From NCBI GenBank assembly GCA_000092065.1, contig CP000582.1: a stretch of DNA of 64,000 nucleotides. The stretch is one strand, 5' to 3'. Shown here piece by piece: positions 4,263-25,917 of the stretch. The notes beneath the pieces were generated by a model. The model was not told the origin of the DNA and did no database searches. It saw only the letters and a list, made by a program, of their open reading frames with translations. Positions within the stretch are counted from its first letter, which is position 1. Each line of letters starts with the position of its first letter. Origin of the DNA: Ostreococcus lucimarinus. Its lineage: Eukaryota. Both the position numbers and the translations under genes were made by a program.

Positions 4263-5683
4263 TTAAAACTCGCGATCGGGGAAAAGCGCTGGGGCGATGA
4301 GGCACCACAGGTAAATCGCGCCCGTCGCCCAGACGCTAAAGAATTTCACCCACACGCTCGCCCAGCCGCTGCCGATCGCTTCGGTGTCGTCCTCGTGTCT
4401 GGTGCCCCAACCCGTGAGTAACATTGACGTGTACATCGCGGCTAGGGCAAACATCAAATGGAAAAAGCTATAGTTGTACTTGACTGGACCGGAAGCGTCG
4501 CCTTCGCTCGCTTCCTCTTCGTCGCCGTCGTTGAGCGCCTCGCGAAGCTCGCTCTGAAAACTCTCGTCGACTTCCATGTCCCAAAAGTTGCTCTCCCCGG
4601 CGCGCATGGCGGCGTACACCACCGAGACGAGCGTAAACGCGGTCGTGACTAAGTTTGCCGGTTTCTTCAACTCCTCGTTGGCGTCGATGAAAGAGCGCGG
4701 ACGACAGGCGTACGTCGACGGTTCCGAAGTCAAAGCCGAGTAGCACAAGTACGTGCAGTACAGCGTCACGGCCGCGGACGGTAACAAGCACCCCTCACGC
4801 GCGGCCGGGTGAAGCGTGATGACCGTCAAGACGACGCACAAAACCACCGTGCAAGTAATCATCGCGATGTTTCGATGACACTCTCGATTCGGGGCGTACG
4901 ACTCGTACATCTCCACAAACAACGCCACAGACGTCGCGTACATCGCGAGCGTCGACACCAACAGCCCCGCGACCCAACCCCAATGCTCACCGCTCGCCCA
5001 GGATTCGTTCCACGCGAACGCAAAGTCCAAGACGATGATCATCTGAATCACCAAGAAGAGCCCCGATCCCAGTCGCGCCGCCGCCGCGTACGCCTCCATT
5101 CCCTCATCCGTCGCCCACAGAAAGAAGAACGCGTGCAGCGCGACGAACGCCAGCACCTTCAACATCCAATTCCCTCGATGCAACGCCTTATCGCGAAAAT
5201 CGGAACGATCTTTCGTCCCGATCAACGCCGCGCTCATCGCGAAGAAGAACGTCGACGTCGCGCACGACGCTCGATACACCGCCTGCGTCTTAAACCACGC
5301 CGCGCTCGCGCGTCCGTTCGCCCCGATCCCTGCGCGCGCATCCCACGTTCGATCGTTCGCATCGTCAGTCGCGCGTCACTTTGCGTCGCGCGCGTCCGCG
5401 CCGTTCCCGTCGTCTCGCCGCGCCGAATCTCAATCCAAATCCGTTCCCCTCGCGCCTCGCCTCGCCTCGCCTCGCCGCCGCACGCACAGCTCAACCGCTC
5501 GAGCGCCGTCTCGGAGCCGTAATCGCGCAGCGCCCACTTCAGCGCGACCGCGCACGCGAACATCGCCGCGTGCGTCGCGCGCGCGGGCGGCGACTTTGGC
5601 ATCGCCGCGCACACCGACGACCCGACGCACGACCCCAGGCACGACATCGCGGGCGTCGCGACGCACGCGAGGAGCGATGCCAT
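4263..5683 (-). CDS. serine incorporator (Serinc/TDE1/TMS) family membrane protein; two exons
   Basis: Exon 2 is complement(4263..5329), track ORF 4263..5279, which begins at GTG and aligns to Serinc only from the third TM helix onward (LVIQMIIVLDFAFAWNESW; FFHLMFALAAMYTSMLLTGW; WVKFFSVWATGAIYLWCLIAPAL). The missing Cys-rich N-terminus MASLLACVATPAMSCLGSCVGSSVCAAMPKSPP...ALERLS is in another reverse frame at complement(5488..5683), ATG verified at 5681-5683. Intron complement(5330..5487): donor GTGCGT, branch GCGACTGACGA, acceptor CAG. Phase 1, junction codon TGG. Confidence 0.75.
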
Positions 5684-15214: not shown

Positions 15215-17221
15215 TCACGACGCGCGCGAAAAGAGAACGCGATGCAAACCCTTAATCTCTCGCACGTCCGCGCGCAAGAGTTCGCGAACGTCATCGTCTG
15301 CGAACACGCTCGGACGCTCCGAACCGCCCGCGCCCTCTCGCCGCTCGAGCTCGCGGAGCGCCTCGGCTATGGCCTCGCCTTTGCTCTCGCCTCGACGCAC
15401 GCGACGGACGTTTGGCGCGCGAACGCCGTGTGTTTTCAAATACACCTCGATCGCTTCGACGTTCGAGTTCCTCGTGATCACGAACGCGCGCGCGTCGTGC
15501 GAGGTAAGCAAGCCCACCAAGTCGGCGTCTCGCGACTTGAGCTCGCACGCCCGGCGCAACCCCGCGGGATCGAGCTCGCGGAAGTTCTTTGGAAGCGGCG
15601 ATGCGCCGGCTTTTGTGGCGCATATCGTGCGGTCGAAATCTAAGAAGACGCAGTACGCGTCGAGTGTTTCCACGAGCTGGACGACGTCCTCGGCATCGCC
15701 GCGTGATATGCCGCAAATTTCGCAAGAGGCCTCGCGCTCGCACTTGAGGCACCGCCTCGAGTGCCGGCACCACGCCTCGCGAAGACACGAAGAAGTCACG
15801 GGACAGCGCCCTTCGTTTCGCGCGGTTTCTTCGCACACCATGCACGTGTTCGCCGTGACCCACAAATTTGAGAACGAGCGCTCGCACGTCCCGCAACGAT
15901 GGGTGCCGGTGACGTGGAGTAAGCGCCCGTCGCTCGCGCCGGCGAGGTCGCTCGAGGCGACCGCCGCCGTCATCCCCGCGTAGAATTTTTGCGTCGTCTG
16001 GGTGTACTGATTGATGATCTTGGCCAGCGCGAAATCATCGGGCACGAACGACGTGGTATTAATACTATCTCCCGAAGCGAACAAAACCTTCGTGGGCTCA
16101 TCGAGGATCTTCTGGATCCACTTTGTCGTCTCTCGAAGCGCCGGCGCCGCCCCCTCGAGGGCGTTCGCCCCTCGGTCGACCACGCACGCGCGTTGAAGTT
16201 TGTCCAACGCTTCGCGCGATGGAGGTATTTTCGCCCCGCTCGTGTCGAAGTCGTCGCGTAAGATATCGTCCGGTGTCGCGTGATCTTTGCGAAGCCTCGC
16301 GGCGAGCGTCTCAGAGTTTTGGGCGATTTCATTCGCGAAGCGTAAAAACTCCCTCAGTTCGGCTCGAATCCAGAGCGCCTTCGTCGCCCCTCGAGCGATG
16401 AGAGAAAGCTCGATAAATCGAACGTAATGCGCCGGGAGATTGAGCTCTTCGCGCACGCGAGTCATGATATGCTCGAAATCTTTCGTCAGCGCAGGCGTCA
16501 TCGCCCGCGCGTCCATCGCCGCCGGCGGCGCGACGGTCAAATCTTTCAATGATTCCTCGACGGCGTCCGATGATGACTCAGCGCCGCCGATTCGAGCGGC
16601 ATCGGCGGCGGCTTTGCCGACGTATCCGTGCGTCACCAACGACCGTGGCATCGACGCCAACCGACGCGGACGACTCAAATTTGGATGTCTCGGCACGCAG
16701 CATATCTGCTTCGTGAAAACGCGCCCATCGAAGATCGCTTTGGCGGCGCCCAAACACCGCCCCCTCGCCGTGCAAATCTCGCGATATCTCGCCGCGTCGA
16801 CGTACCCGGAGGCTTGCCCAAAGTCTCCTCTATAAAATGTCATCAATCGTCGCAAACGCATCTCCAACACCTCTATCTCGTATTGCGAATGTAACAACAC
16901 CTTCTTTAGGTTCACGCAATTCCTCCTCGTCCCGAACGCATCGCTCACCGCGCCCGCGCGGTCGATGAATTCCGCCACCGCGCCGCCGAGCCGCGAACCG
17001 AAGACGCCGACGACGTCTCTTCGCACTAAATCCCACCTTCCTTGCTCAAAAGTCAAGATATTTCTCGCGTCAACGTCCAGCACACACTGTCCAGGTATCG
17101 CATCGCGCGTCTCTCCGCCGTAAAGCGCCCTCACGCGCCGTTCGAACGTCTCCGCGTCCTCGTCGCCGCGACGCGCCGCGAGCGCGTTCGCGGCGTCTGC
17201 GAGCGTCGTCGAGACCACCAT
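15215..17221 (-). CDS. hypothetical protein with Cys-rich module and C-terminal HAD-superfamily hydrolase-like domain
   Basis: Track ORF 15215..17425 starts at GTG. First ATG is at 17219-17221 (verified), MVVSTTLADA. C-terminal region has HRCGTCERSF...CMVCEE...CLKCERE...CEICG, then FLDFDRTI (DxDxT motif I), VITRNS, GESKG and FADDD consistent with HAD motifs II-IV. Confidence 0.55.
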   Translation of the reverse strand: MVVSTTLADAANALAARRGDEDAETFERRVRALYGGETRDAIPGQCVLDVDARNILTFEQGRWDLVRRDVVGVFGSRLGGAVAEFIDRAGAVSDAFGTRRNCVNLKKVLLHSQYEIEVLEMRLRRLMTFYRGDFGQASGYVDAARYREICTARGRCLGAAKAIFDGRVFTKQICCVPRHPNLSRPRRLASMPRSLVTHGYVGKAAADAARIGGAESSSDAVEESLKDLTVAPPAAMDARAMTPALTKDFEHIMTRVREELNLPAHYVRFIELSLIARGATKALWIRAELREFLRFANEIAQNSETLAARLRKDHATPDDILRDDFDTSGAKIPPSREALDKLQRACVVDRGANALEGAAPALRETTKWIQKILDEPTKVLFASGDSINTTSFVPDDFALAKIINQYTQTTQKFYAGMTAAVASSDLAGASDGRLLHVTGTHRCGTCERSFSNLWVTANTCMVCEETARNEGRCPVTSSCLREAWCRHSRRCLKCEREASCEICGISRGDAEDVVQLVETLDAYCVFLDFDRTICATKAGASPLPKNFRELDPAGLRRACELKSRDADLVGLLTSHDARAFVITRNSNVEAIEVYLKTHGVRAPNVRRVRRGESKGEAIAEALRELERREGAGGSERPSVFADDDVRELLRADVREIKGLHRVLFSRAS

Positions 17222-17933
17222 CGATGACGTCGTCCGCGCGCACCACCGCGCGCGCGTCTCGCGCCGCCGAGCGTCGACTCGAGCGCAATCACCCACGACG
17301 CGCGCGCGCGCGTCGCTCGTTCGCGCGCTCGCGTCGCGCGCGCGCCTCCGGACCGCCGCTTTCGTCGCCGCGCGTCGTCGCGCGTCGTCGTCGACGCCGA
17401 GACGTTCGATTTCGCGCGCATCCACCGCGCCGACGACGCGATCTCACCGCCCGCGCTCGCCGCGCAGACGCGCAAACGCGCCCCTTCTTTTCGTCCCGCG
17501 CGCCTCCCGCGCCCGGCGTCCCGCGCCCGCGTCGCGCACTCGCGCCGCGCGCCGCGCGCGACGCGCGCGCGTCGATCCCCTCGCGCGCGCGCGCGTCCGA
17601 CCGACCGCCTCCACGTATTCCGCGCGCGAAACGCCCATCAAAGTGGAATCAGAACCGACGAACGCCGATCGTCTCGCGCGATGGCGTTCGCGACGCGCCG
17701 AGTACGGCGTTCGCGACGCGCGTCGCGCGCTAAATTCGCGAGTCCCGCGCGTCGAGTCGCGACCGGTCGCGGGGGCGCGGGCCCCGCGACTCTTTGAATT
17801 CTTAGACGTTTCAGACCTTGAATACGAGATCATCGATCGTTCGGGACTCAACAGCGTGGGACTCCCCATCGGCGCGATTCAAATTCGCCCGTTGGCCGCG
17901 CTTCGGTCCCCTCGCGTCACAGCGCGACGCGAC

Positions 17934-20900
17934 ATGTCGTCGCCGGCGAAGGAGAACCCCGCGAGCGGGGACGGTGGCGTCAAGACGCCGTCATCGGTGC
18001 GCGCCGCGGGCGAGCGCGCGATCGCGAGCGCGACGAGATGCGAATCGCGACGACGATGACGACGCGGTTTGATTTGAACGCGCGTCGGATGGACGAATGC
18101 GGGGACGACGATGGCGCGCGCGCGCGCGAACGCGAGACTGACGGAGACGACGAACGGATTCGAACGTAGATATTGAAACGACAGTCGCGATCGGCGCTCG
18201 CGGCGTCGCCGTCGTCGCAGGCGGTGTTCGGGGAGAATGGGTCGGCGGCGCGGTCGACGCGCGCGACGCGCGCCTCGGCGCGAAGAGATTCGTCGGCGAG
18301 TCAAGGCGAGGGTGCGCCGGCGTCGCCGGCGTTCACGAAACGAAAGAAGCAGCGACAGTCGATGGGGCGACGCGTGTCGTTCGCGGATCCGGCGCAGTTG
18401 GAGAGCGTGCGAGAGTTTATTAAGGAGGAGGAGGAACGAGAGAAGAGCGGAGAGTCGTACCAGAGCGGCGCGCAGAGCGAGGGTGTGCCCGCGGGGTTCG
18501 GACTCGTGGAAGAGACGAGCGTGGACGTGATACCCATGGTACAAGGTGATCGCACGGAGACGTTCGAGTTTAAGGCTGCGCAGGAGACTTTGACGACGAA
18601 CGTCGCGGCGGCGGGAGAAGGGACGCCGTCGCCGCTCGAGCGTGGCGATGGAGTATCTTTTTCCTTGTCTCCGGTCATCGAGAGCGATGGTGACGCGTCG
18701 AATAGCGCCCAATTAAATAGTGAGGGGAAGCACACGCCGGGCAAGCGACGCGCGAGCATTGGACGCGTGGCGACGCCGAACTCGGCGGATCAAACGGGGA
18801 CGTTTACGTTTAACGCTTCGCAGAATATGGATGAAGTCACGGGTGAGGTACCGACGATGGGTGCGTTAATCGACGCCGACGACGTGACGGAAAATATCAC
18901 CGGTGCTGTTCCGTCGTTGGCGAATCTTTTGAGCGCCGATGAGTCGCCGCTTGGGTACAGACCGACGCCGACGCGGGGCTCCAAGGCGGACGCGACGGAG
19001 GACATCACGGGCACTGTGCCGTCGCTCGCCGCGCTCGCTGACGAAGACGAGGAACAAAACGCCTCCGCGGCTCAGAGTGATCAAGAAGGTGGTGAGATGG
19101 ACATGGACATGGGTAACACCACCGACGGTCTTCCCACGTTCGATCCGTTGGTTGACGCCACGCAACGCGCCGTCGATCAGGCGCACGCGAGCGCGCTCAA
19201 CTTGGCAAACACTGTGATGATGGACGAAGCGACGATGGCGTTCACTGTGGGTGCGCCCACGCCTAGTTCCGTCGCGCCCGGTCCGACGCCTTCGTTGACG
19301 TTTGCATTCGACGATAAGAAGGATAACCGAGCGAGCGTTGGGGCGCCGCCGCCATCCGTCACCGCAAACACGCGACCGTTCAATTTGACCGATTCCACGA
19401 ATTTGGATTTGCAGCGCCAAGCCAAGGGTGGCATGGGCACCGATACCTTCAACTACGTCTACGGACCGAACGGTGATATGGTACCGACTGAGGGTACGAC
19501 CGCGACGCAATCAGTCGCCGCGCCGCAACCCTCCGCGATGGATTTTCCAACCGCGGAAGTCACGGGTGCTGACGTGCAGGTGGCTGTCGGGGTCACGCCC
19601 GCGAATACCGCCGGTGTCACGGCGACGCCGAACACTGACGGATCCATCGCGAGCTCACACGATGGCTTTACGCCTGGTGACGAGTCTTTGCGCATGGCGG
19701 AGCTCTTGCGTCAAAAGCAGCACGGCGACGAGGCGTTGATGAGCATGAGAAAGGTGTACCAAGATAGAACGACACCGATGCACGGACGTTACGGCGCGCC
19801 GCCGGCGATGCAAGCGTTCACGCCTTCGAGGACGATCACGATGGGTGGTACCAATTTCATGCAGTTTGGTGGTATCGGTACGCCGGGCGCAGCGATGCAC
19901 AACCCGCTCTTTGGCACGCCTGGCGGTCACACGGGCACGATGTTGCAAGGCCTCCCCACGTCGCTTCCGCCGATTCCGGACGCCTTGATGCACTCCAAAC
20001 CGATCGATTTGGAGACGTTCTTCTACGCTTGTGAGATTTCCTTCATGGAAGCGAAGAACTTAGGACGTCGTTCATCCATTGCCATGGGCGCGCTTGCCAC
20101 AGCGCCGCCGCCGGAGACGCAACCCGAAGCTTTGAAGCTGTGTTGCCTGACCGCACCGCTCATCGAAGCGCTGGAAGGGTTCCACGAGCAGCTCCAAGAG
20201 CGAATGACGACGCTCACTAGCGAAACGGACAAGTTGCGATCGACAGTCGAGGCGACGCAGCCGCCATTGTTACGTTACGCCGCGTCCGACGATCCGGCGC
20301 ACGTCAACGAGTTGCGTCGTGCGGGCAAGGCGCTGAAAAAGGAATGCCAACTCGCGGCTAAGGAGCGATTCGCGCAGCAGCGATTGGAGACAGAAGAACT
20401 CGTGCGCGAAAGTTTGAACTTCCACAGCGATATCCTGGCGAAGAGCGCGCAAAGCATCGCGAACTCGCGAGCCATCGCGGCGGAGGCGATTTCGAGCGCC
20501 AATGGCCACATCATCAAGCTCCGGGCGCAGCGAGCGGCGAGCTCTAAGCGTGCTGATGCGGCGAAATCCGCCTCAGCGACCAAGGAACAAGTTTTGGAAG
20601 CTCTTGCGATCAAACGCGCTGCGATAGCCGCCGCACGTCGCGCTTTAACGACCAGTGATGAAAATTTGGTTCGCATGAAGTCGCGAAAGACGACCATCAA
20701 GTCTGAGCGCGAGCGTTTGCAAGAAGAACTTGACGCCATGCGTGAGGCGCAAGACGCGGCGGCGGACGCGACGGTGAGTTTCAAATCGTTCGGCGGTGTT
20801 GACATGGACGACACGCCTTCTCGATTACGCAGAGCGAGTCAAGTGAGGCTTCGCGCCAAGGCAAAGAATGCTCAAAGTGCGAGCGAAGAGCTCGGCGTGT

Positions 20901-21586
20901 TGAGCGGACTCGCGCCGTGGCGTCTCGAAGGCGTCGGTGGACCGGTGGGGGCGGAACTGACGATGCGTGTCGGTACACTGTTCCGAGTGACGCTCGATGC
21001 GAGCACTGGTGCCGGTCGTGTCACGTTGATCGACGGTCCGGAGACCACGCCGAAGGGTGGACGTCAGTTCGCCGCGGCTTTGGCTGGCGCGCCTATCGCT
21101 TGGGACGAAGACGCCGTGCCCGCAGGACATGTCGCTGGTGTCTTACAAGAGCTCGCGCCGAAGCTTTCTCGCGCCGAGCGCGTGCTGGAAGAAACTGAAG
21201 GATGCCGAAACGAGTTTCCTCGACTGAATAGAATCAAGTGTAGCCCCAATGGTGTGCTCGAGCTCACCTTCGTCGATTTTGCCAACGAGCGCTTGTTTAG
21301 CGTCAAGCTCAACATGATGGGTGGTGCCTATCCCTACGGAGCTCTGAGCCCCGAGGTCACGGTGCAACTCACTGGGAAGAAGGGTGTCAGCGAGTTACCG
21401 AGCGTTGAAGCGATTCAACGCGCCGTGAACGCCGTGCCCGTCGGACCGCGCCGTTTGACAAACGTGTGCCGCATTTTAGATTCCATAGTCAGCACGGGGA
21501 AGAACGCTTTGACGTCGTTCGCGTCCATGCCCGCCCCGGCACCGCGAAGACCGTCACACGCACCTTCGCTCCTGTATGCTCGTTAG
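17934..21586 (+). CDS. kinetochore scaffold KNL1/Spc105-like protein; two exons
   Basis: Proposed join(17934..17996,18185..21586). Track ORF 18173..21586 starts at TTG right at a CAG acceptor that is preceded by GAGACTGACGGA. Upstream ATG 17934 gives MSSPAKENPASGDGGVKTPSS followed by GTGCGC. Main exon: KRKKQRQSMGRRVSFADPAQL (PP1-docking RVSF in KNL1 context), three ITG-x-VPSL repeats with MELT-like cores (MDEVT, ENIT, EDIT), long central coiled coil, globular C-terminus. The main exon is well supported; exon 1 and the family call are moderate. Confidence 0.55.
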
Positions 21587-21620: not shown

Positions 21621-23000
21621 TCACAGACTAAAGCTAGTAGCCGCGCCGTCGAACGCTATACGAAGCTCCGGCGGTGAAGCTGCCGCGACGCGCGCTTCAT
21701 CACCGTCACCAATCGTTCTAAACGCTAAACAGTGCACACTTCGCAGTCGTTCGTAGAGCACGCGATCGAAGCCCAACTGTCGAAGCGCGGCGCGCCATTC
21801 GCTAAGGATGGGGAGGGCTTTATGTCCGCAGTGCCCTTTGTCCGTCGAATGCGGGGTGATGATGAAAAGTAAGCCACCGCCGCGATTTTTCAACGCTAAA
21901 CGCGCGCGCCGCACCATCTCTCCTCGCTGTTTCGGCGTTGGAAGGTAACTTAGAACGAGACTGAACACGACAACGTCCGCGGCGTGCTGCGCGACGGCTT
22001 CGAGGCGTCGATCCGTCACTCTTTGCGCGTTACCAAACTCCACCTTGAGCCAATCGCATTCGTACACCGATGGTACCGATGGCATTAGATCGCACGCAGT
22101 CGTCTCTACGCTCAACCTTCCCGGCCACGGTCCTTTAAAATGCAAATTAAAGTAATCCCAACAAGAGCCGACGTCTAAAATCTTTATCGACGTCCCCGCG
22201 GCGGCGCTACGATCGGGTGTCCCTCTCGGCCCATCGCTTTCGACGACGTCTCGCATCATCATTTCTATCGTCGCTTTTGACGACGTCATCGCTCGCTTCA
22301 ACTCTCTCGCGCGCCGTTTGTTCGCCAGTTGCCACGAAAAGGACGTCGTCGCCGCCTTCAACGACCCTTCGCCATCGCTAAAATACCGCCCCATCGCGTC
22401 GACGCACCATTCAAGCGCGCTCACCACCCACGCGCGATTCCCAACCTCCGTAGCGGCTTCCGCGTACGCGCGCAACGCCGGTTTCTGTTCCACGATCGTT
22501 CGTTCCCACGTCTCGTCGACGTCCTCAGCCTCTCGCGCCGCCGCTCTCAACGCTCGATGATGATTGACGATCACCCCTCGTCGCCACACCGCCCGCGCTC
22601 TGTCCCGCGCGCTCTTCGCCGTCGCGCGCGCGACTTCTCGTCTCAACGCCTCGTCGTCGCCGTTCGTTTTCGCCGCCTCCGCGAAGACGCCCGCGCACCG
22701 CGCGCGCCGGTCCGCCGCCGCGTTCGCCGCCAACGCCTCCGTCGTCTCTCGCACCCGCGCCAGCACCGCCGACCGCGCGCCGTCGTCCGCGCCGTCGTCC
22801 AGCGCATCTTTTTCAGCGACAGCCAGGGCGAAGAGCGCTCGCACGACGCGCTCGCACGACCGCGAATCCCCGAACGAGGCCCCGACGTCGCGCTCGATCT
22901 CGCGGCGCTCCTCCGCGGACGCGCGCTCGAGCGCCGCGCGCGCGGCGCGGCGCAAGCGGCGCGCGCAGTGCGCGAAGAGCGACGCCGGGAGCGCATCCAT
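21621..23000 (-). CDS. BMT2/SAMTOR-family S-adenosylmethionine-dependent methyltransferase
   Basis: C-terminal 460 aa of track ORF 21621..23918; the rest of that ORF is antisense to NOC3. ATG at CAT 22998-23000, MDALPASLFAHC. Matches BMT2/SAMTOR: IKILDVGSCWDYF vs LRVLDVGSCFNPF; DWLKVEF; VVFSLVLSYLPTPKQR vs VIFSLLLEYMPSAEQR; LLFIITPHS vs LVLITPDS. Confidence 0.7.
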   Translation of the reverse strand: MDALPASLFAHCARRLRRAARAALERASAEERREIERDVGASFGDSRSCERVVRALFALAVAEKDALDDGADDGARSAVLARVRETTEALAANAAADRRARCAGVFAEAAKTNGDDEALRREVARATAKSARDRARAVWRRGVIVNHHRALRAAAREAEDVDETWERTIVEQKPALRAYAEAATEVGNRAWVVSALEWCVDAMGRYFSDGEGSLKAATTSFSWQLANKRRARELKRAMTSSKATIEMMMRDVVESDGPRGTPDRSAAAGTSIKILDVGSCWDYFNLHFKGPWPGRLSVETTACDLMPSVPSVYECDWLKVEFGNAQRVTDRRLEAVAQHAADVVVFSLVLSYLPTPKQRGEMVRRARLALKNRGGGLLFIITPHSTDKGHCGHKALPILSEWRAALRQLGFDRVLYERLRSVHCLAFRTIGDGDEARVAAASPPELRIAFDGAATSFSL

Positions 23001-23124
23001 GGGACACTTCGCGGCGCGCTGTGACGCCCCGCGCGTCGACGACGACGCGCGAGGCGACGCGCGCGCGTCGGACGCGCGGTATAATAATCGCGACGACGTC
23101 GTCGACGCGCGACTCGAGCCGGGC

Positions 23125-25917
23125 ATGAAACGCGGGAACGCGGGCGATGGGAAGCGCCGCCGCCGGCTGGGCAAAACGAACAAAGCGCCGCCGCCGCGCG
23201 CGCCGGTCGTCGAACGCGATGCGAACGACGACTCGGAGAGCGACGTGAGCGATGAGGATGTGAAATTCGTCCGACGGAACGCGGCGTACGCGTCGTTCAT
23301 CGCGAAAGGGAGCTTTGAGGAGGAAGAGGGGGGGAAGCGACGGCGAGCGGGACGCGAGCGCGACGCGGACGACGACGATTTGGAGGGGGCGCACGCGCGC
23401 GCGTTGGCGGAGAAACGACGAAAAGTTGAGGAGGAGAAGAAACGGATCGCGAATTTGCCGGATGAGGAGAAACCGATGCGGTTGCCGGTGAAACGATTGG
23501 ACGGGACGGTGGTGCGAGACGCGGTGGCGCCGCCAGACGCGCCGGCGAGCGACGAAGAGGAGGCGGGAGGAAGACGGAATGACGCGGACGAGGGCGAGGG
23601 ACGGTGGAAAAACGTTGGCGATGGCGAAGGTAAGGGTTTGGGCAAGAAGGCGCTGGCGAGAGAGATTCGAGAGAGTGATCTTGGGCGGGAGACGACGAAA
23701 TCAAAGAAGAACGAAAAGTGGTGGGAAAAGCGCGAGGAGGAAGAAGCCGCGGCGAAGGCGAAGGCGAAGAAGCGCGCAAAGGGAGATTCCGACAGCGCTA
23801 GCGACTCAGAAGACGCGCGAGCGAACGACCCGGCGATGAAACTCGCGGACAAGCGTCGAGCCGAGCGATTGGCTCTTGAGGCGGAGATGAGCGCAGAGGC
23901 GCGACGCGAGAGCGTCAAGGTACGAATTGCGTCGACGTGTCAGAGCGTCATCGAGGATCCAGAGTCGAAGTGGAAAGAGCTCAAAGACATCGGCACGCTT
24001 TGTGAAGACCGAGACTCGGAAATCGCTCGATTAGCGTCGCTATCGCTCACCTTGGTCTACCGCGACATTTGCCCGGGCTATCGCATTCGACCTCCGACGG
24101 AAAAGGAGTTGTCCATGAAGGTGAGTAAAGACGTGCTCAAGACGCGCGCTTTCGAGACGGGCTTGCTTGAGCACTACAAGTCGTACGTGAAAATGCTAGT
24201 GAGATGCTCTGGGGCGAAGAAATCTCGCGCACAGCGTGGCAAAGGCGGACCAGATGCGGAGTCTGCGATCAAGTGTTTGTGCGCCTTGCTCATCGGATTG
24301 CCGAGCTTCAACTATCGCACGGATATTTTATCCGCCATCGTGCCCGTCTTCGATAAGCGAGACACCAGTCACGCGCAGATCGTCACTGATGCTCTGGTTG
24401 AGGTCGTGTCTAACGACATTCGCGGCGATCTCACGCTCGAGGCGTTGCACATGACGGCGCAGCTCGTGAAGCAGAGTAAATGCAACATTCAGCCGTGCGC
24501 GTTTGCGTACTTCCTCAAGGTTCGCTTCGATGAGGGCATATTAGTGCCTATGGTGCGTGACAGGAAAGAAATTCTTTCTCGTAAGCAGACGTTCAAGAAG
24601 AAGCAGGAAGAGCGTGATAAGATTCGCAGAGCTCGCGCGGAGAAGACGAGGAAGCAACAAGACAAGGAACGCATGAAATCATTCGGGCACGTCGCGGACT
24701 CTTCAGACGATAGCGAAGACGAAGAGGCGGCGTTTCATCGAGATTTAGACGAAGGTTCAGCGGTGATGAGTTTCGGCGAGAAGAAAAAAACGCAGAGTCG
24801 ATTATTAGAGGCGACTTTCGAGATGTACTTTCGCGTATTGAAGAACGCCGCGAGTCCGGCGCCGACGCCCGGGTTGCCGCTCTTGAGCGCCGCGCTCACG
24901 GGTTTGGCAAAGTTCACGCATTTAATCTCCATCGATTTCTTGGGTGATCTCATGGAAGTGTTTAGAAAGTTATTGGCCCAGGAAGACTTGCTCTCGGACG
25001 CGCTCAAGGCGCAAACTTTGCTGACGGCGTGTGAAATTTTGAGCGGTCACGGAGAGGTTTTGCAAGTGGATACCGGGGAATTCTACCGTCAGCTCTATAC
25101 GATGCTCGGCAAGCCCAGCGTAGGTGCAGCGGGGTGGCAAGATGGTATGTCTATAACCGATCAACGCGCGCTCAATCACGGCACGCTGCGCGTTCGTGCC
25201 ATTCAAAAGTTCATCGGCGGTTTCAAGCAAGTCGATCAAGCACGCATGGCGGCGTTTTCCAAGCGCCTCACCTCGGCGTCGATCGGCATGGAAGCTGGCG
25301 AATGCCTGGGTTCGCTCGGTGTCGTCCGCCAAATTCTCGCGTCGTATCATCGCGTGCGTAACTTGCTCGAGAACGAGCGGATTGGGAACGGAGTGTTTCA
25401 GATGGATTTAGACGATCCCGAGCACGCACAAGGCATGTCCGCCGTGCTCTGGGATCTTTGTCTACTTTCGCAACACTACCATCCCACGTGCGCGGCGGCG
25501 GCTCACGAGGTTGCCAATTTACCACTCTCGGGCGCGATAGCTCCACCTCCCGGCTCACACGCCCCGAGCGAGCTCGCAAAGGCGTACTCCACGCTCCGTG
25601 GAGACTTCAACCCGCCGATTCCCGAGCCGCCGACGCAACGCAACAAACCGCGAGCGCCGATCGATCAGAAAAAGTTCGTCGACGCCTACGACGAATCTTT
25701 CAAACGGAACGTCATCAGTAAGCTCGGCGACACCGTCGACACCGTCGAAGCGCGTGCGTTCCGCCGACATTTCCGTCGCGTTCGAGCGCACGGGGAAAAC
25801 TTTCGGTTACGAAGGGAGCGCGACGCCCTCGCGCGAAAAATTAGCGCCATGCGCGCGCACGAGCTCGAAGCCAAGTCGAAGTCGAAATCTAAAAAATCGT
25901 CGTCCAAACGCACGTAG
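23125..25917 (+). CDS. NOC3: nucleolar complex protein 3 (NOC3; CBF/Mak21 family)
   Basis: Track ORF starts at 22564. I place the start at ATG 23125 (MKRGNAGDGKRRRRLGKTNK, basic N-terminus typical of NOC3). Conserved LSLTLVYRDICPGYRIRPPTEKE and the CBF-domain LLSQHYHPTCAAAAHEV, acidic patches, K-rich C-terminus. Confidence 0.75.
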   Translation: MKRGNAGDGKRRRRLGKTNKAPPPRAPVVERDANDDSESDVSDEDVKFVRRNAAYASFIAKGSFEEEEGGKRRRAGRERDADDDDLEGAHARALAEKRRKVEEEKKRIANLPDEEKPMRLPVKRLDGTVVRDAVAPPDAPASDEEEAGGRRNDADEGEGRWKNVGDGEGKGLGKKALAREIRESDLGRETTKSKKNEKWWEKREEEEAAAKAKAKKRAKGDSDSASDSEDARANDPAMKLADKRRAERLALEAEMSAEARRESVKVRIASTCQSVIEDPESKWKELKDIGTLCEDRDSEIARLASLSLTLVYRDICPGYRIRPPTEKELSMKVSKDVLKTRAFETGLLEHYKSYVKMLVRCSGAKKSRAQRGKGGPDAESAIKCLCALLIGLPSFNYRTDILSAIVPVFDKRDTSHAQIVTDALVEVVSNDIRGDLTLEALHMTAQLVKQSKCNIQPCAFAYFLKVRFDEGILVPMVRDRKEILSRKQTFKKKQEERDKIRRARAEKTRKQQDKERMKSFGHVADSSDDSEDEEAAFHRDLDEGSAVMSFGEKKKTQSRLLEATFEMYFRVLKNAASPAPTPGLPLLSAALTGLAKFTHLISIDFLGDLMEVFRKLLAQEDLLSDALKAQTLLTACEILSGHGEVLQVDTGEFYRQLYTMLGKPSVGAAGWQDGMSITDQRALNHGTLRVRAIQKFIGGFKQVDQARMAAFSKRLTSASIGMEAGECLGSLGVVRQILASYHRVRNLLENERIGNGVFQMDLDDPEHAQGMSAVLWDLCLLSQHYHPTCAAAAHEVANLPLSGAIAPPPGSHAPSELAKAYSTLRGDFNPPIPEPPTQRNKPRAPIDQKKFVDAYDESFKRNVISKLGDTVDTVEARAFRRHFRRVRAHGENFRLRRERDALARKISAMRAHELEAKSKSKSKKSSSKRT

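Follow-up and report, generated by a model that had tools for sequence, protein, structure and literature searches.

Introduction

The outer-kinetochore scaffold KNL1 (Spc105 in yeast, Spc7 in fission yeast) has been described in human, in yeasts and in land plants. In human KNL1 (CASC5/Blinkin; PDB: 4NF9, 4NFA, 8PPR, 8Q5H), a SILK and an RVSF motif are followed by disordered repeats, helices and a tandem pair of RWD domains, and the repeats comprise about 19 MELT units, with KI motifs and SHT elements. The yeast proteins contain several M-E-[IL]-T motifs that are read by Bub3; in the structure of yeast Bub3 bound to MELT, the Met at position -3 and the residue at -1 relative to the Thr occupy a deep hydrophobic pocket (PMC3779320). 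SILK, defined by the consensus (S/G)ILK (PMC11797493), and RVxF form the canonical pair through which KNL1 docks protein phosphatase 1 (PP1), and land-plant KNL1 has been reported with RVSF only, together with lineage-specific domains that bind BMF proteins and BUB3.3 (PMC10786300, PMC11797493). KNL1 repeat units are modular, with modules gained and lost independently, in the account given in the main text of Tromer, Snel and Kops (2015; PMC4558858). In recent work on Arabidopsis and maize, the means by which checkpoint proteins reach kinetochores of the plant lineage, where MELT motifs are missing, is an open question.

Here, we describe a probable KNL1 gene of the picoalga Ostreococcus lucimarinus, located at 17934–21586 on the plus strand of a 64,000-nucleotide stretch of contig CP000582.1 (assembly GCA_000092065.1), which we refer to as the window. 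A KNL1 (Spc105/Spc7) outer-kinetochore scaffold of 1159 residues, encoded in two exons, is the best explanation of the locus, and we put the probability of this reading at roughly 85%. The open reading frame (ORF) from which the initial annotation started is present at 18173–21586 (+) and encodes 1137 residues when read from its TTG. Read from the first in-frame ATG instead (MGRRVSFAD..., 1074 residues), it is identical to XP_001416270.1/ABO94563.1, a “predicted protein” of O. lucimarinus CCE9901, and to UniProt A4RSC4, automatically named “Spc7 kinetochore protein domain-containing protein”. Automatic annotation had thus already assigned the gene to its family; it is an uncharacterised new member of a known family and not a new kind of system. 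What is new here is a two-exon model in which SILK is recovered, the finding that canonical MELT is missing, and the recognition of the repeats as a conserved Viridiplantae KNL1 module.

A KNL1-type architecture

The carboxy-terminal half of the protein provides the most direct link to the family, and it bears out the earlier proposal of a KNL1/Spc105 orthologue. Residues 630–814 (19994–20548) match the Spc7 domain (Pfam PF08317) with an E-value of 3e-10 and a score of 40.2 bits, above the Pfam gathering cut-off of 34.5 bits. An AlphaFold2 model of residues 630–1159, with a predicted local distance difference test (pLDDT) score of 68, places helices at residues 672–717, 730–821, 826–892 and 903–932, leading into the RWD domains. 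The second and third of these, 92 and 67 residues long and free of Pro and Gly, form a predicted long helical region of coiled-coil type (residues 730–892; 20294–20782), directly before the RWD domains as in KNL1 and where a coiled coil had been anticipated.

Tandem RWD domains are predicted at residues 904–1139 (20816–21523), in the region that had been described as a globular, possibly RWD-containing carboxy terminus with a suggestion to model it. The AlphaFold2 model of residues 891–1159 (pLDDT 77.7, predicted template modelling score 0.68, 11-sequence alignment) runs through helix, strands and helix twice over, which fits two RWD domains. A Foldseek comparison of this model returned human KNL1 (8ppr_K, E 1.8e-7; 4nfa, E 9.6e-7) far ahead of all other folds, and also the RWD region of yeast Spc105 in the KMN junction complex (9S4Q chain Kl; E 0.02, probability 0.95). 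The human RWD pair superposes on the predicted Ostreococcus pair at 2.8 Å over 182 residues, with about 16% sequence identity; the likeness to yeast Spc105 and fission-yeast Spc7 likewise lies in the Spc7 domain and the RWD region. Fold comparison was needed because sequence searches of PDB chains, with the full protein and with a profile of its carboxy-terminal half, retrieved no KNL1 and only weak coiled-coil noise.

The amino-terminal region carries the PP1-docking pair. The ORF contains KRKKQRQSMGRRVSFADPAQL, whose RVSF (18371–18382) corresponds to residues 89–92 of the spliced product, and the KNL1-like docking context ascribed to it is genuine: RVSF closes a basic patch at residues 76–92 (18332–18382; FTKRKKQRQSMGRRVSF), giving an RVxF motif in the basic context KRKKQRQSMGRRVSF. 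Further upstream, and in the spliced model only, TPSS|ILKR supplies an (S/G)ILK motif at residues 21–24 (17994–18178), split by the intron such that S is encoded at 17994–17996 and ILK at 18170–18178. Both motifs lie within a basic stretch (net charge +7 over residues 71–90), and the basic patch with RVSF is a conserved island common to a clade at 40% identity.

In a rival reading, the gene encodes some other coiled-coil protein in which RVSF arose by accident, the default alternative named in the initial annotation. When the whole protein is shuffled, the motif alone does arise about 1% of the time, and the failure of the PDB sequence searches to retrieve KNL1 points in the same direction. 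SILK and RVxF together, however, occur in only 1.5e-5 of shuffles (first 130 residues), the Spc7 score exceeds its cut-off, and the tandem RWD fold resembles KNL1 far more than anything else. The Spc7 score and the fold effectively refute an origin outside the KNL1 family, to which we assign almost no probability.

First exon and the split SILK motif

The predicted product of 1159 residues joins two exons. Exon 1 (17934–17996) opens at the first in-frame ATG and comprises 21 codons (MSSPAKENPASGDGGVKTPSS), the last of which encodes the S of SILK; exon 2 (18170–21586) extends to the stop codon. The intervening phase-0 intron (17997–18169, 173 nucleotides) has a GTGCGC donor at 17997, a TAG acceptor at 18167–18169 and a branch-point-like CTGAC box at 18138–18142, 28 nucleotides 5' of the acceptor G. 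It is splicing at 17996/18170 that creates the SILK motif upstream of RVSF.

A short 5' exon with this ATG and donor had been proposed before, and conservation at five related loci, together with an intronless relative, now supports it. The peptide MS[ST]P[AT]KEN..VKTPSS directly before a GT[GA]CG donor is kept in L001, L002, L004, L005 and L007, and in related Ostreococcus-clade contigs the downstream exon starts right after YAG with ATWTTRAA, the codons for ILK. The intron itself varies in length (165, 173 in the window, 248, 250 and 254 nucleotides) while the flanking exons are conserved, and a GACTGACG box inside it is common to the window and L001; L003, which has a run of N at about 5395–5450 inside its KNL1 intron, was left out of this comparison. 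The intronless relative at 40% identity, L006, reads KENVESRATPSSILKR uninterrupted and encodes the region as a single ORF, ACGCCCTCCTCCATCCTCAAGCGC, which contains TPSSILKR. Conserved exon ends, a variable intron and an intronless relative therefore place the predicted junction at 17996/18170, with TAG as the conserved acceptor.

The previously suggested junction at 17996/18185, which relied on a CAG acceptor 15 nucleotides further downstream (18182–18184), is rejected as the main one. CAG would delete the conserved ILKRQ, of which ILKR is also found in the intronless relative, and it is not conserved in L004, L005 and L007. Because both acceptors are in frame, CAG may nevertheless see minor alternative use.

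The intron appears to reach well beyond Ostreococcus. Unspliced metagenome gene calls (P0005, P0008, P0009, P0072, P0079 and P0061) read through the acceptor as “Q-ILK”, and at 777–830 of L001 a splice-blind gene call translates the intron and reads the CAG acceptor as Gln (“Q-ILKR”). Since the read-through recurs in several algal gene calls, this intron position is apparently an old one among green algae, and introns that split S|ILK seem to occur widely in their KNL1 genes, with L006 as the intronless exception.

The public model (18362–21586) begins at M86 of the 1159-residue product, from which point the identity with XP_001416270.1 is complete, and lacks exon 1, SILK and most of the basic amino terminus. 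Were it correct, translation would start at MGRRVSFAD, and the upstream exon and SILK would lie outside the protein. This start is used by XP_001416270.1 and by 117 clustered gene calls, and our searches, detailed below, recovered no spliced model or transcript. Against it, the 64 codons from 18170 to M86 are conserved in frame among relatives, the exon-1 peptide, donor and acceptor persist in five loci while intron length varies, and the intronless relative encodes the same TPSSILKR. Most of the gene calls starting at M86 come, moreover, from callers that are unable to splice. We consider the M86 start very improbable.

Three repeats in a low-complexity middle region

Between RVSF and the Spc7 domain lies a low-complexity region (residues 96–625; 18392–19981) that consists of S, T, P, G and A to 48% and is presumably disordered, in agreement with the long disordered Ser/Thr/Pro region described earlier. 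Between clades its conservation is limited to short islands, residues 363–374, 512–549 and 562–626 among them. Three repeats, NMDEVTGEVPTMGAL, TENITGAVPSLANL and TEDITGTVPSLAAL, lie within 77 residues (18824–19054) and belong to the few middle segments that still align with the clade at 40% identity. Repeat 1 covers residues 240–259 (18824–18883; NMDEVTGEVPTMGALIDADD), repeat 2 residues 260–279 (18884–18943; VTENITGAVPSLANLLSADE) and repeat 3 residues 296–316 (18992–19054; ATEDITGTVPSLAALADEDEE).

The repeats take the form x-[DE/N]-[VI]-T-G-x-V-P-[ST]-[ML]-[GA]-x-L, with cores EVT, NIT and DIT; relative to the Thr, position -1 is V, I and I, position -2 is E, N and D, and position -3 is D, E and E. 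The candidate phospho-acceptor Thr thus has an aliphatic neighbour at -1 in all three repeats, with an acidic residue at -2 in repeats 1 and 3 and Asn there in repeat 2. The pattern [IV]T..VP.[LM]..L occurs three times in the protein; among 20000 composition-preserving shuffles it was absent from 19995, occurred once in 5, and never more than once. The earlier description of three MELT-like repeats therefore holds in part: the three repeats exceed chance by far, and they are not simple MELT cores, having no Met at -3.

Several results weigh against the reading of this locus as a spliced KNL1 gene whose repeats dock checkpoint proteins. A strict search for M-[ED]-[ILVM]-T found no match anywhere in the protein, such that the MELT array of the family is missing, and the Met at -3 that enters the Bub3 pocket is absent from all three repeats, position -3 being mostly G across the family. 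In an environmental variant of 99% identity (P0001, residues 155–166; NMDEVAGEVP), Ala replaces the Thr of repeat 1; nine other near-identical sequences retain the Thr, and the change could reflect either polymorphism or faulty assembly. In land plants, KNL1 recruits checkpoint proteins independently of both MELT and Mps1 (PMC10786300, PMC11797493). An amino-terminal search of the protein collection found no spliced Ostreococcus model, its matches being M86 models and the read-through ORF P0141, and a scan of metagenome contigs for both candidate junctions gave 29 hits, all in unrelated GC-rich bacterial DNA, and so no transcript support either way. Lastly, the alignments behind the two AlphaFold2 models are shallow (11 and 8 sequences). 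The lack of MELT does not by itself exclude membership of the family, because accepted land-plant KNL1s are also without it (PMC4558858, PMC10786300).

Two further features of the middle region are recorded here in their own right. The island at residues 512–549 (19640–19753; SSHDGFTPGDESLRMAELLRQKQHGDEAL) is conserved as G[FY]TPG...L.MM.KLK..HG in 18 proteins of the Ostreococcus and sister clades and is not found in more distant relatives; it looks helix-forming. Thr-aromatic motifs, TETFEF and TGTFTF (18554–18577 and 18797–18817) and MGTDTFNYVYG (residues 442–455), are reminiscent of the T-omega/TF elements in the KNL1 repeats of animals, and the last is kept as TF.[FY]VYG in 12 relatives.

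The repeat motif in other green algae

Relatives were collected with a profile of the carboxy-terminal half in an exhaustive search of 1.84 billion representatives; the repeats themselves lie outside the profile. An earlier word-index profile search had given 5 hits only, probably swamped by Ala-rich words. The exhaustive search yielded 88 relatives, several with Spc7 above threshold; the 88 include Erythroxylum (a land plant), Cymbomonas tetramitiformis (a prasinophyte) and Mesostigma viride (an early streptophyte). The same motif is present, in 1–5 copies each, in 33 of the KNL1-like proteins retrieved. All 76 distinct instances have the Thr and a Pro at +4. Their consensus is G-[DN]-[IV]-T-[AG]-A-[VL]-P-[SGR]-L-x-x-L-x-[DE]-x-D-E, which can be written more loosely as G-[DN]-[IV]-T-x-x-[VL]-P-x-L-x-x-L-x-[DE]-x-D-E, and conservation is strongest downstream of the Thr, in VP-x-L-x-x-L and then an acidic run. 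Among PDB sequences the motif profile gave a single significant hit, phosphoglycerate kinase 7la1_A (residues 42–59, PGRITASVPTLSALVEAG; RITASVPTLSALVEAG; E 4.8e-4), which was judged to be chance.

Outside two clades that have no MELT, the motif often coexists with a genuine M[DE][ILM]T, and in 11 proteins a canonical MELT stands 7–36 residues upstream of a motif copy. The clearest case is Cymbomonas KAK3233280 (P0052, residues 1–210), in which a near-perfect tandem unit of 33 residues, EETMDISHTQHGNITAAVPRLADILNQGEA, is repeated five to six times. Each unit reads TMDISHT..GNITAAVPRLADIL, where M-D-I-S-H-T is followed seven residues on by G-N-I-T-A-A-V-P-R-L-A-D-I-L. The proteins of Cymbomonas and Mesostigma share G-[DN]-I-T-A-[AS]-[VI]-P-R-L-A-D-[IL] and the Spc7/RWD carboxy-terminal half; whereas Cymbomonas has a clean tandem array with M-D-I-S-H-T ahead of every copy, Ostreococcus has three non-tandem copies without it. 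This array would be well suited to separating the contributions of the two halves of the repeat. In Erythroxylum (KAJ8748152), reached by the carboxy-terminal profile at E 2.8e-4 and the one land-plant sequence examined, the motif was not found; the protein has an amino-terminal RRVSFA and is likewise without canonical MELT. Compared with land-plant KNL1 as reported in the literature, Ostreococcus keeps SILK and carries IT-x-x-VP-x-L-x-x-L.

Because the motif follows a true MELT in relatives, it is best read, from comparison of the sequences, as a module that accompanies, on the downstream side, the MELT repeat unit of the green lineage. Occurrence in both Chlorophyta and Mesostigma implies that the module predates the split between chlorophytes and streptophytes. 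The Ostreococcus clade and its sister clade at 40% identity would accordingly be lineages that lost canonical MELT and kept the companion module only. It is conceivable, if rather unlikely, that the module is an ancestral Viridiplantae KNL1 docking motif that took over checkpoint-protein recruitment in these two clades after MELT was lost.

Elements of the module have counterparts in other lineages. The main text of Tromer, Snel and Kops (PMC4558858) notes that the MELT repeats of arthropods, of Yarrowia and of Galdieria, a red alga, conserve a Pro at +4 relative to the Thr, and the same spacing of Thr and Pro is found in the Ostreococcus repeats. The modular units of that account and the Ostreococcus repeats have in common that they are short middle-region repeats with a Thr of acidophilic-kinase type, Pro at +4 and downstream hydrophobic residues. 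No green alga is named in the main text of PMC4558858, and the module goes unmentioned in the literature text searched.

Possible function of the module

By analogy with the KNL1 proteins of yeast, animals and Arabidopsis, a working scheme for the protein can be drawn. The RWD pair would anchor it to the Mis12 complex, and the long helices would pair with a Zwint-like partner. SILK and RVSF, with the basic patch, would recruit PP1 and so silence the spindle checkpoint, and may also touch microtubules, while the repeats would serve as docking sites for checkpoint proteins. The core [DEN]-[IV]-T fits the site of an acidophilic Mps1/Plk-type kinase, and [EDN]x[ST] is called a potential phosphosite in the main text of PMC4558858. 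For the repeats, we lean, at somewhat less than even odds, towards phospho-regulated docking of Bub3–MadBub through the module. Within this preferred reading, a Bub3 pocket that reads the Thr and a VP-x-L-x-x-L helix that binds another surface, such as the tetratricopeptide repeat (TPR) domain of MadBub, are roughly equally likely.

Taken at its simplest, the first of these would make the three repeats direct functional equivalents of MELT, where Mps1 phosphorylates the Thr, the canonical pocket of Bub3 binds [DE]-[IV]-pT and VP-x-L-x-x-L adds affinity. The Thr is invariant in all 76 instances, preceded by I, V or L at -1 and, in most, by D, N or E at -2; the protein offers no other MELT candidate; the hydrophobic residue at +3 matches the position at which yeast MELT2 has a Phe that contacts Bub3 (PMC3779320); and MELT repeats of other organisms also have a Pro at +4 (main text of PMC4558858). 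Yet every copy lacks the Met at -3, the best-conserved positions lie downstream of the Thr, and the Thr of repeat 1 is replaced by Ala in a natural variant. The coexistence with true M[DE][ILM]T in other green algae means, in addition, that the motif is not simply a local spelling of MELT. Direct equivalence to MELT is, in our judgement, doubtful.

The motif could instead act as a docking helix in its own right, directed at a different surface or partner. Candidates are the TPR domain of the single MadBub protein, by analogy with the vertebrate KI motifs beside MELT1, and a checkpoint recruiter specific to the green lineage; the Thr would then have a structural or regulatory role and would not be a ligand of Bub3. 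Such a helix would account for a motif that accompanies MELT wherever MELT exists and whose V/L-P-x-L-x-x-L-[ALV] has the spacing of an amphipathic helix, followed by an acidic run. Land-plant KNL1 binds BMF proteins through MELT-independent domains (PMC10786300, PMC12526889), and its MELT-free recruitment of checkpoint proteins makes a route that does not involve Bub3 plausible in the green lineage. On the other side, the KI consensus KI(D/N)FxxF(L/I)xRL (PMC11797493) is not matched: there is no Lys-Ile start, there are no aromatic residues, and the spacing from I to L is one residue longer, while a profile of the motif retrieves no KNL1 or KI peptide among PDB sequences. The 76-instance consensus thus makes identity with the KI motif itself unlikely, and a separate docking helix of any kind is only a tentative proposal, which we rate below even odds by a clear distance.

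The acidic run raises a third possibility, that L-x-x-L-x-[DE] with its acidic residues is a docking site of LxxIxE type through which KNL1 recruits PP2A-B56 directly. L-x-x-[LI]-x-[DE] is present in 44 of the 76 instances, with acidic residues downstream. The PP2A-B56 consensus LxxIxE, however, has Glu at position 6, which only 17 of the 76 provide; the Ostreococcus copies have D, S and D there, and the acidic pair with the highest conservation comes two residues later. Direct B56 docking is improbable on these counts, and phospho-regulated docking of Bub3–MadBub remains the reading we prefer.

Set against human KNL1, the Ostreococcus protein keeps the same order of elements in half the size (1159 residues), with three copies of a different motif and without canonical MELT, KI motifs or SHT; set against the yeast proteins, it has none of the M-E-[IL]-T motifs.

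Neighbouring genes

Downstream, on the opposite strand and convergent, a gene at 21621–23918 (-) resembles the Bmt2 rRNA methyltransferase (Pfam score 28.7 bits against a cut-off of 20, residues 537–690); its ORF has a long low-complexity amino-terminal extension, part of which may be non-coding. Relatives share the same order of genes, KNL1, Bmt2-like, NOC3p, small ORF and YIF1. Upstream, a divergent ORF of 736 residues (15215–17425, -) has no Pfam match at E<=0.01 and shares an intergenic region of roughly 500 base pairs with exon 1 of the KNL1 gene.

Implications

The two-exon model corrects a reference gene in a model picoeukaryote, and with it green algae are seen to retain the full ancestral PP1-docking pair, SILK and RVSF; SILK has been hidden by a mis-annotated first exon in Ostreococcus and by a read-through intron in many other algal gene calls. 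The repeats add a compact, countable and deeply conserved motif that stands beside MELT in some green algae and alone in others, and they offer a defined peptide with which recruitment of the checkpoint independently of MELT could be studied in the plant lineage. If the module did take over recruitment after the loss of MELT, it would define a previously undescribed interface between KNL1 and the checkpoint, and the picoalgae would stand naturally midway between most eukaryotes, which recruit through MELT, and land plants, whose recruitment dispenses with both MELT and Mps1.

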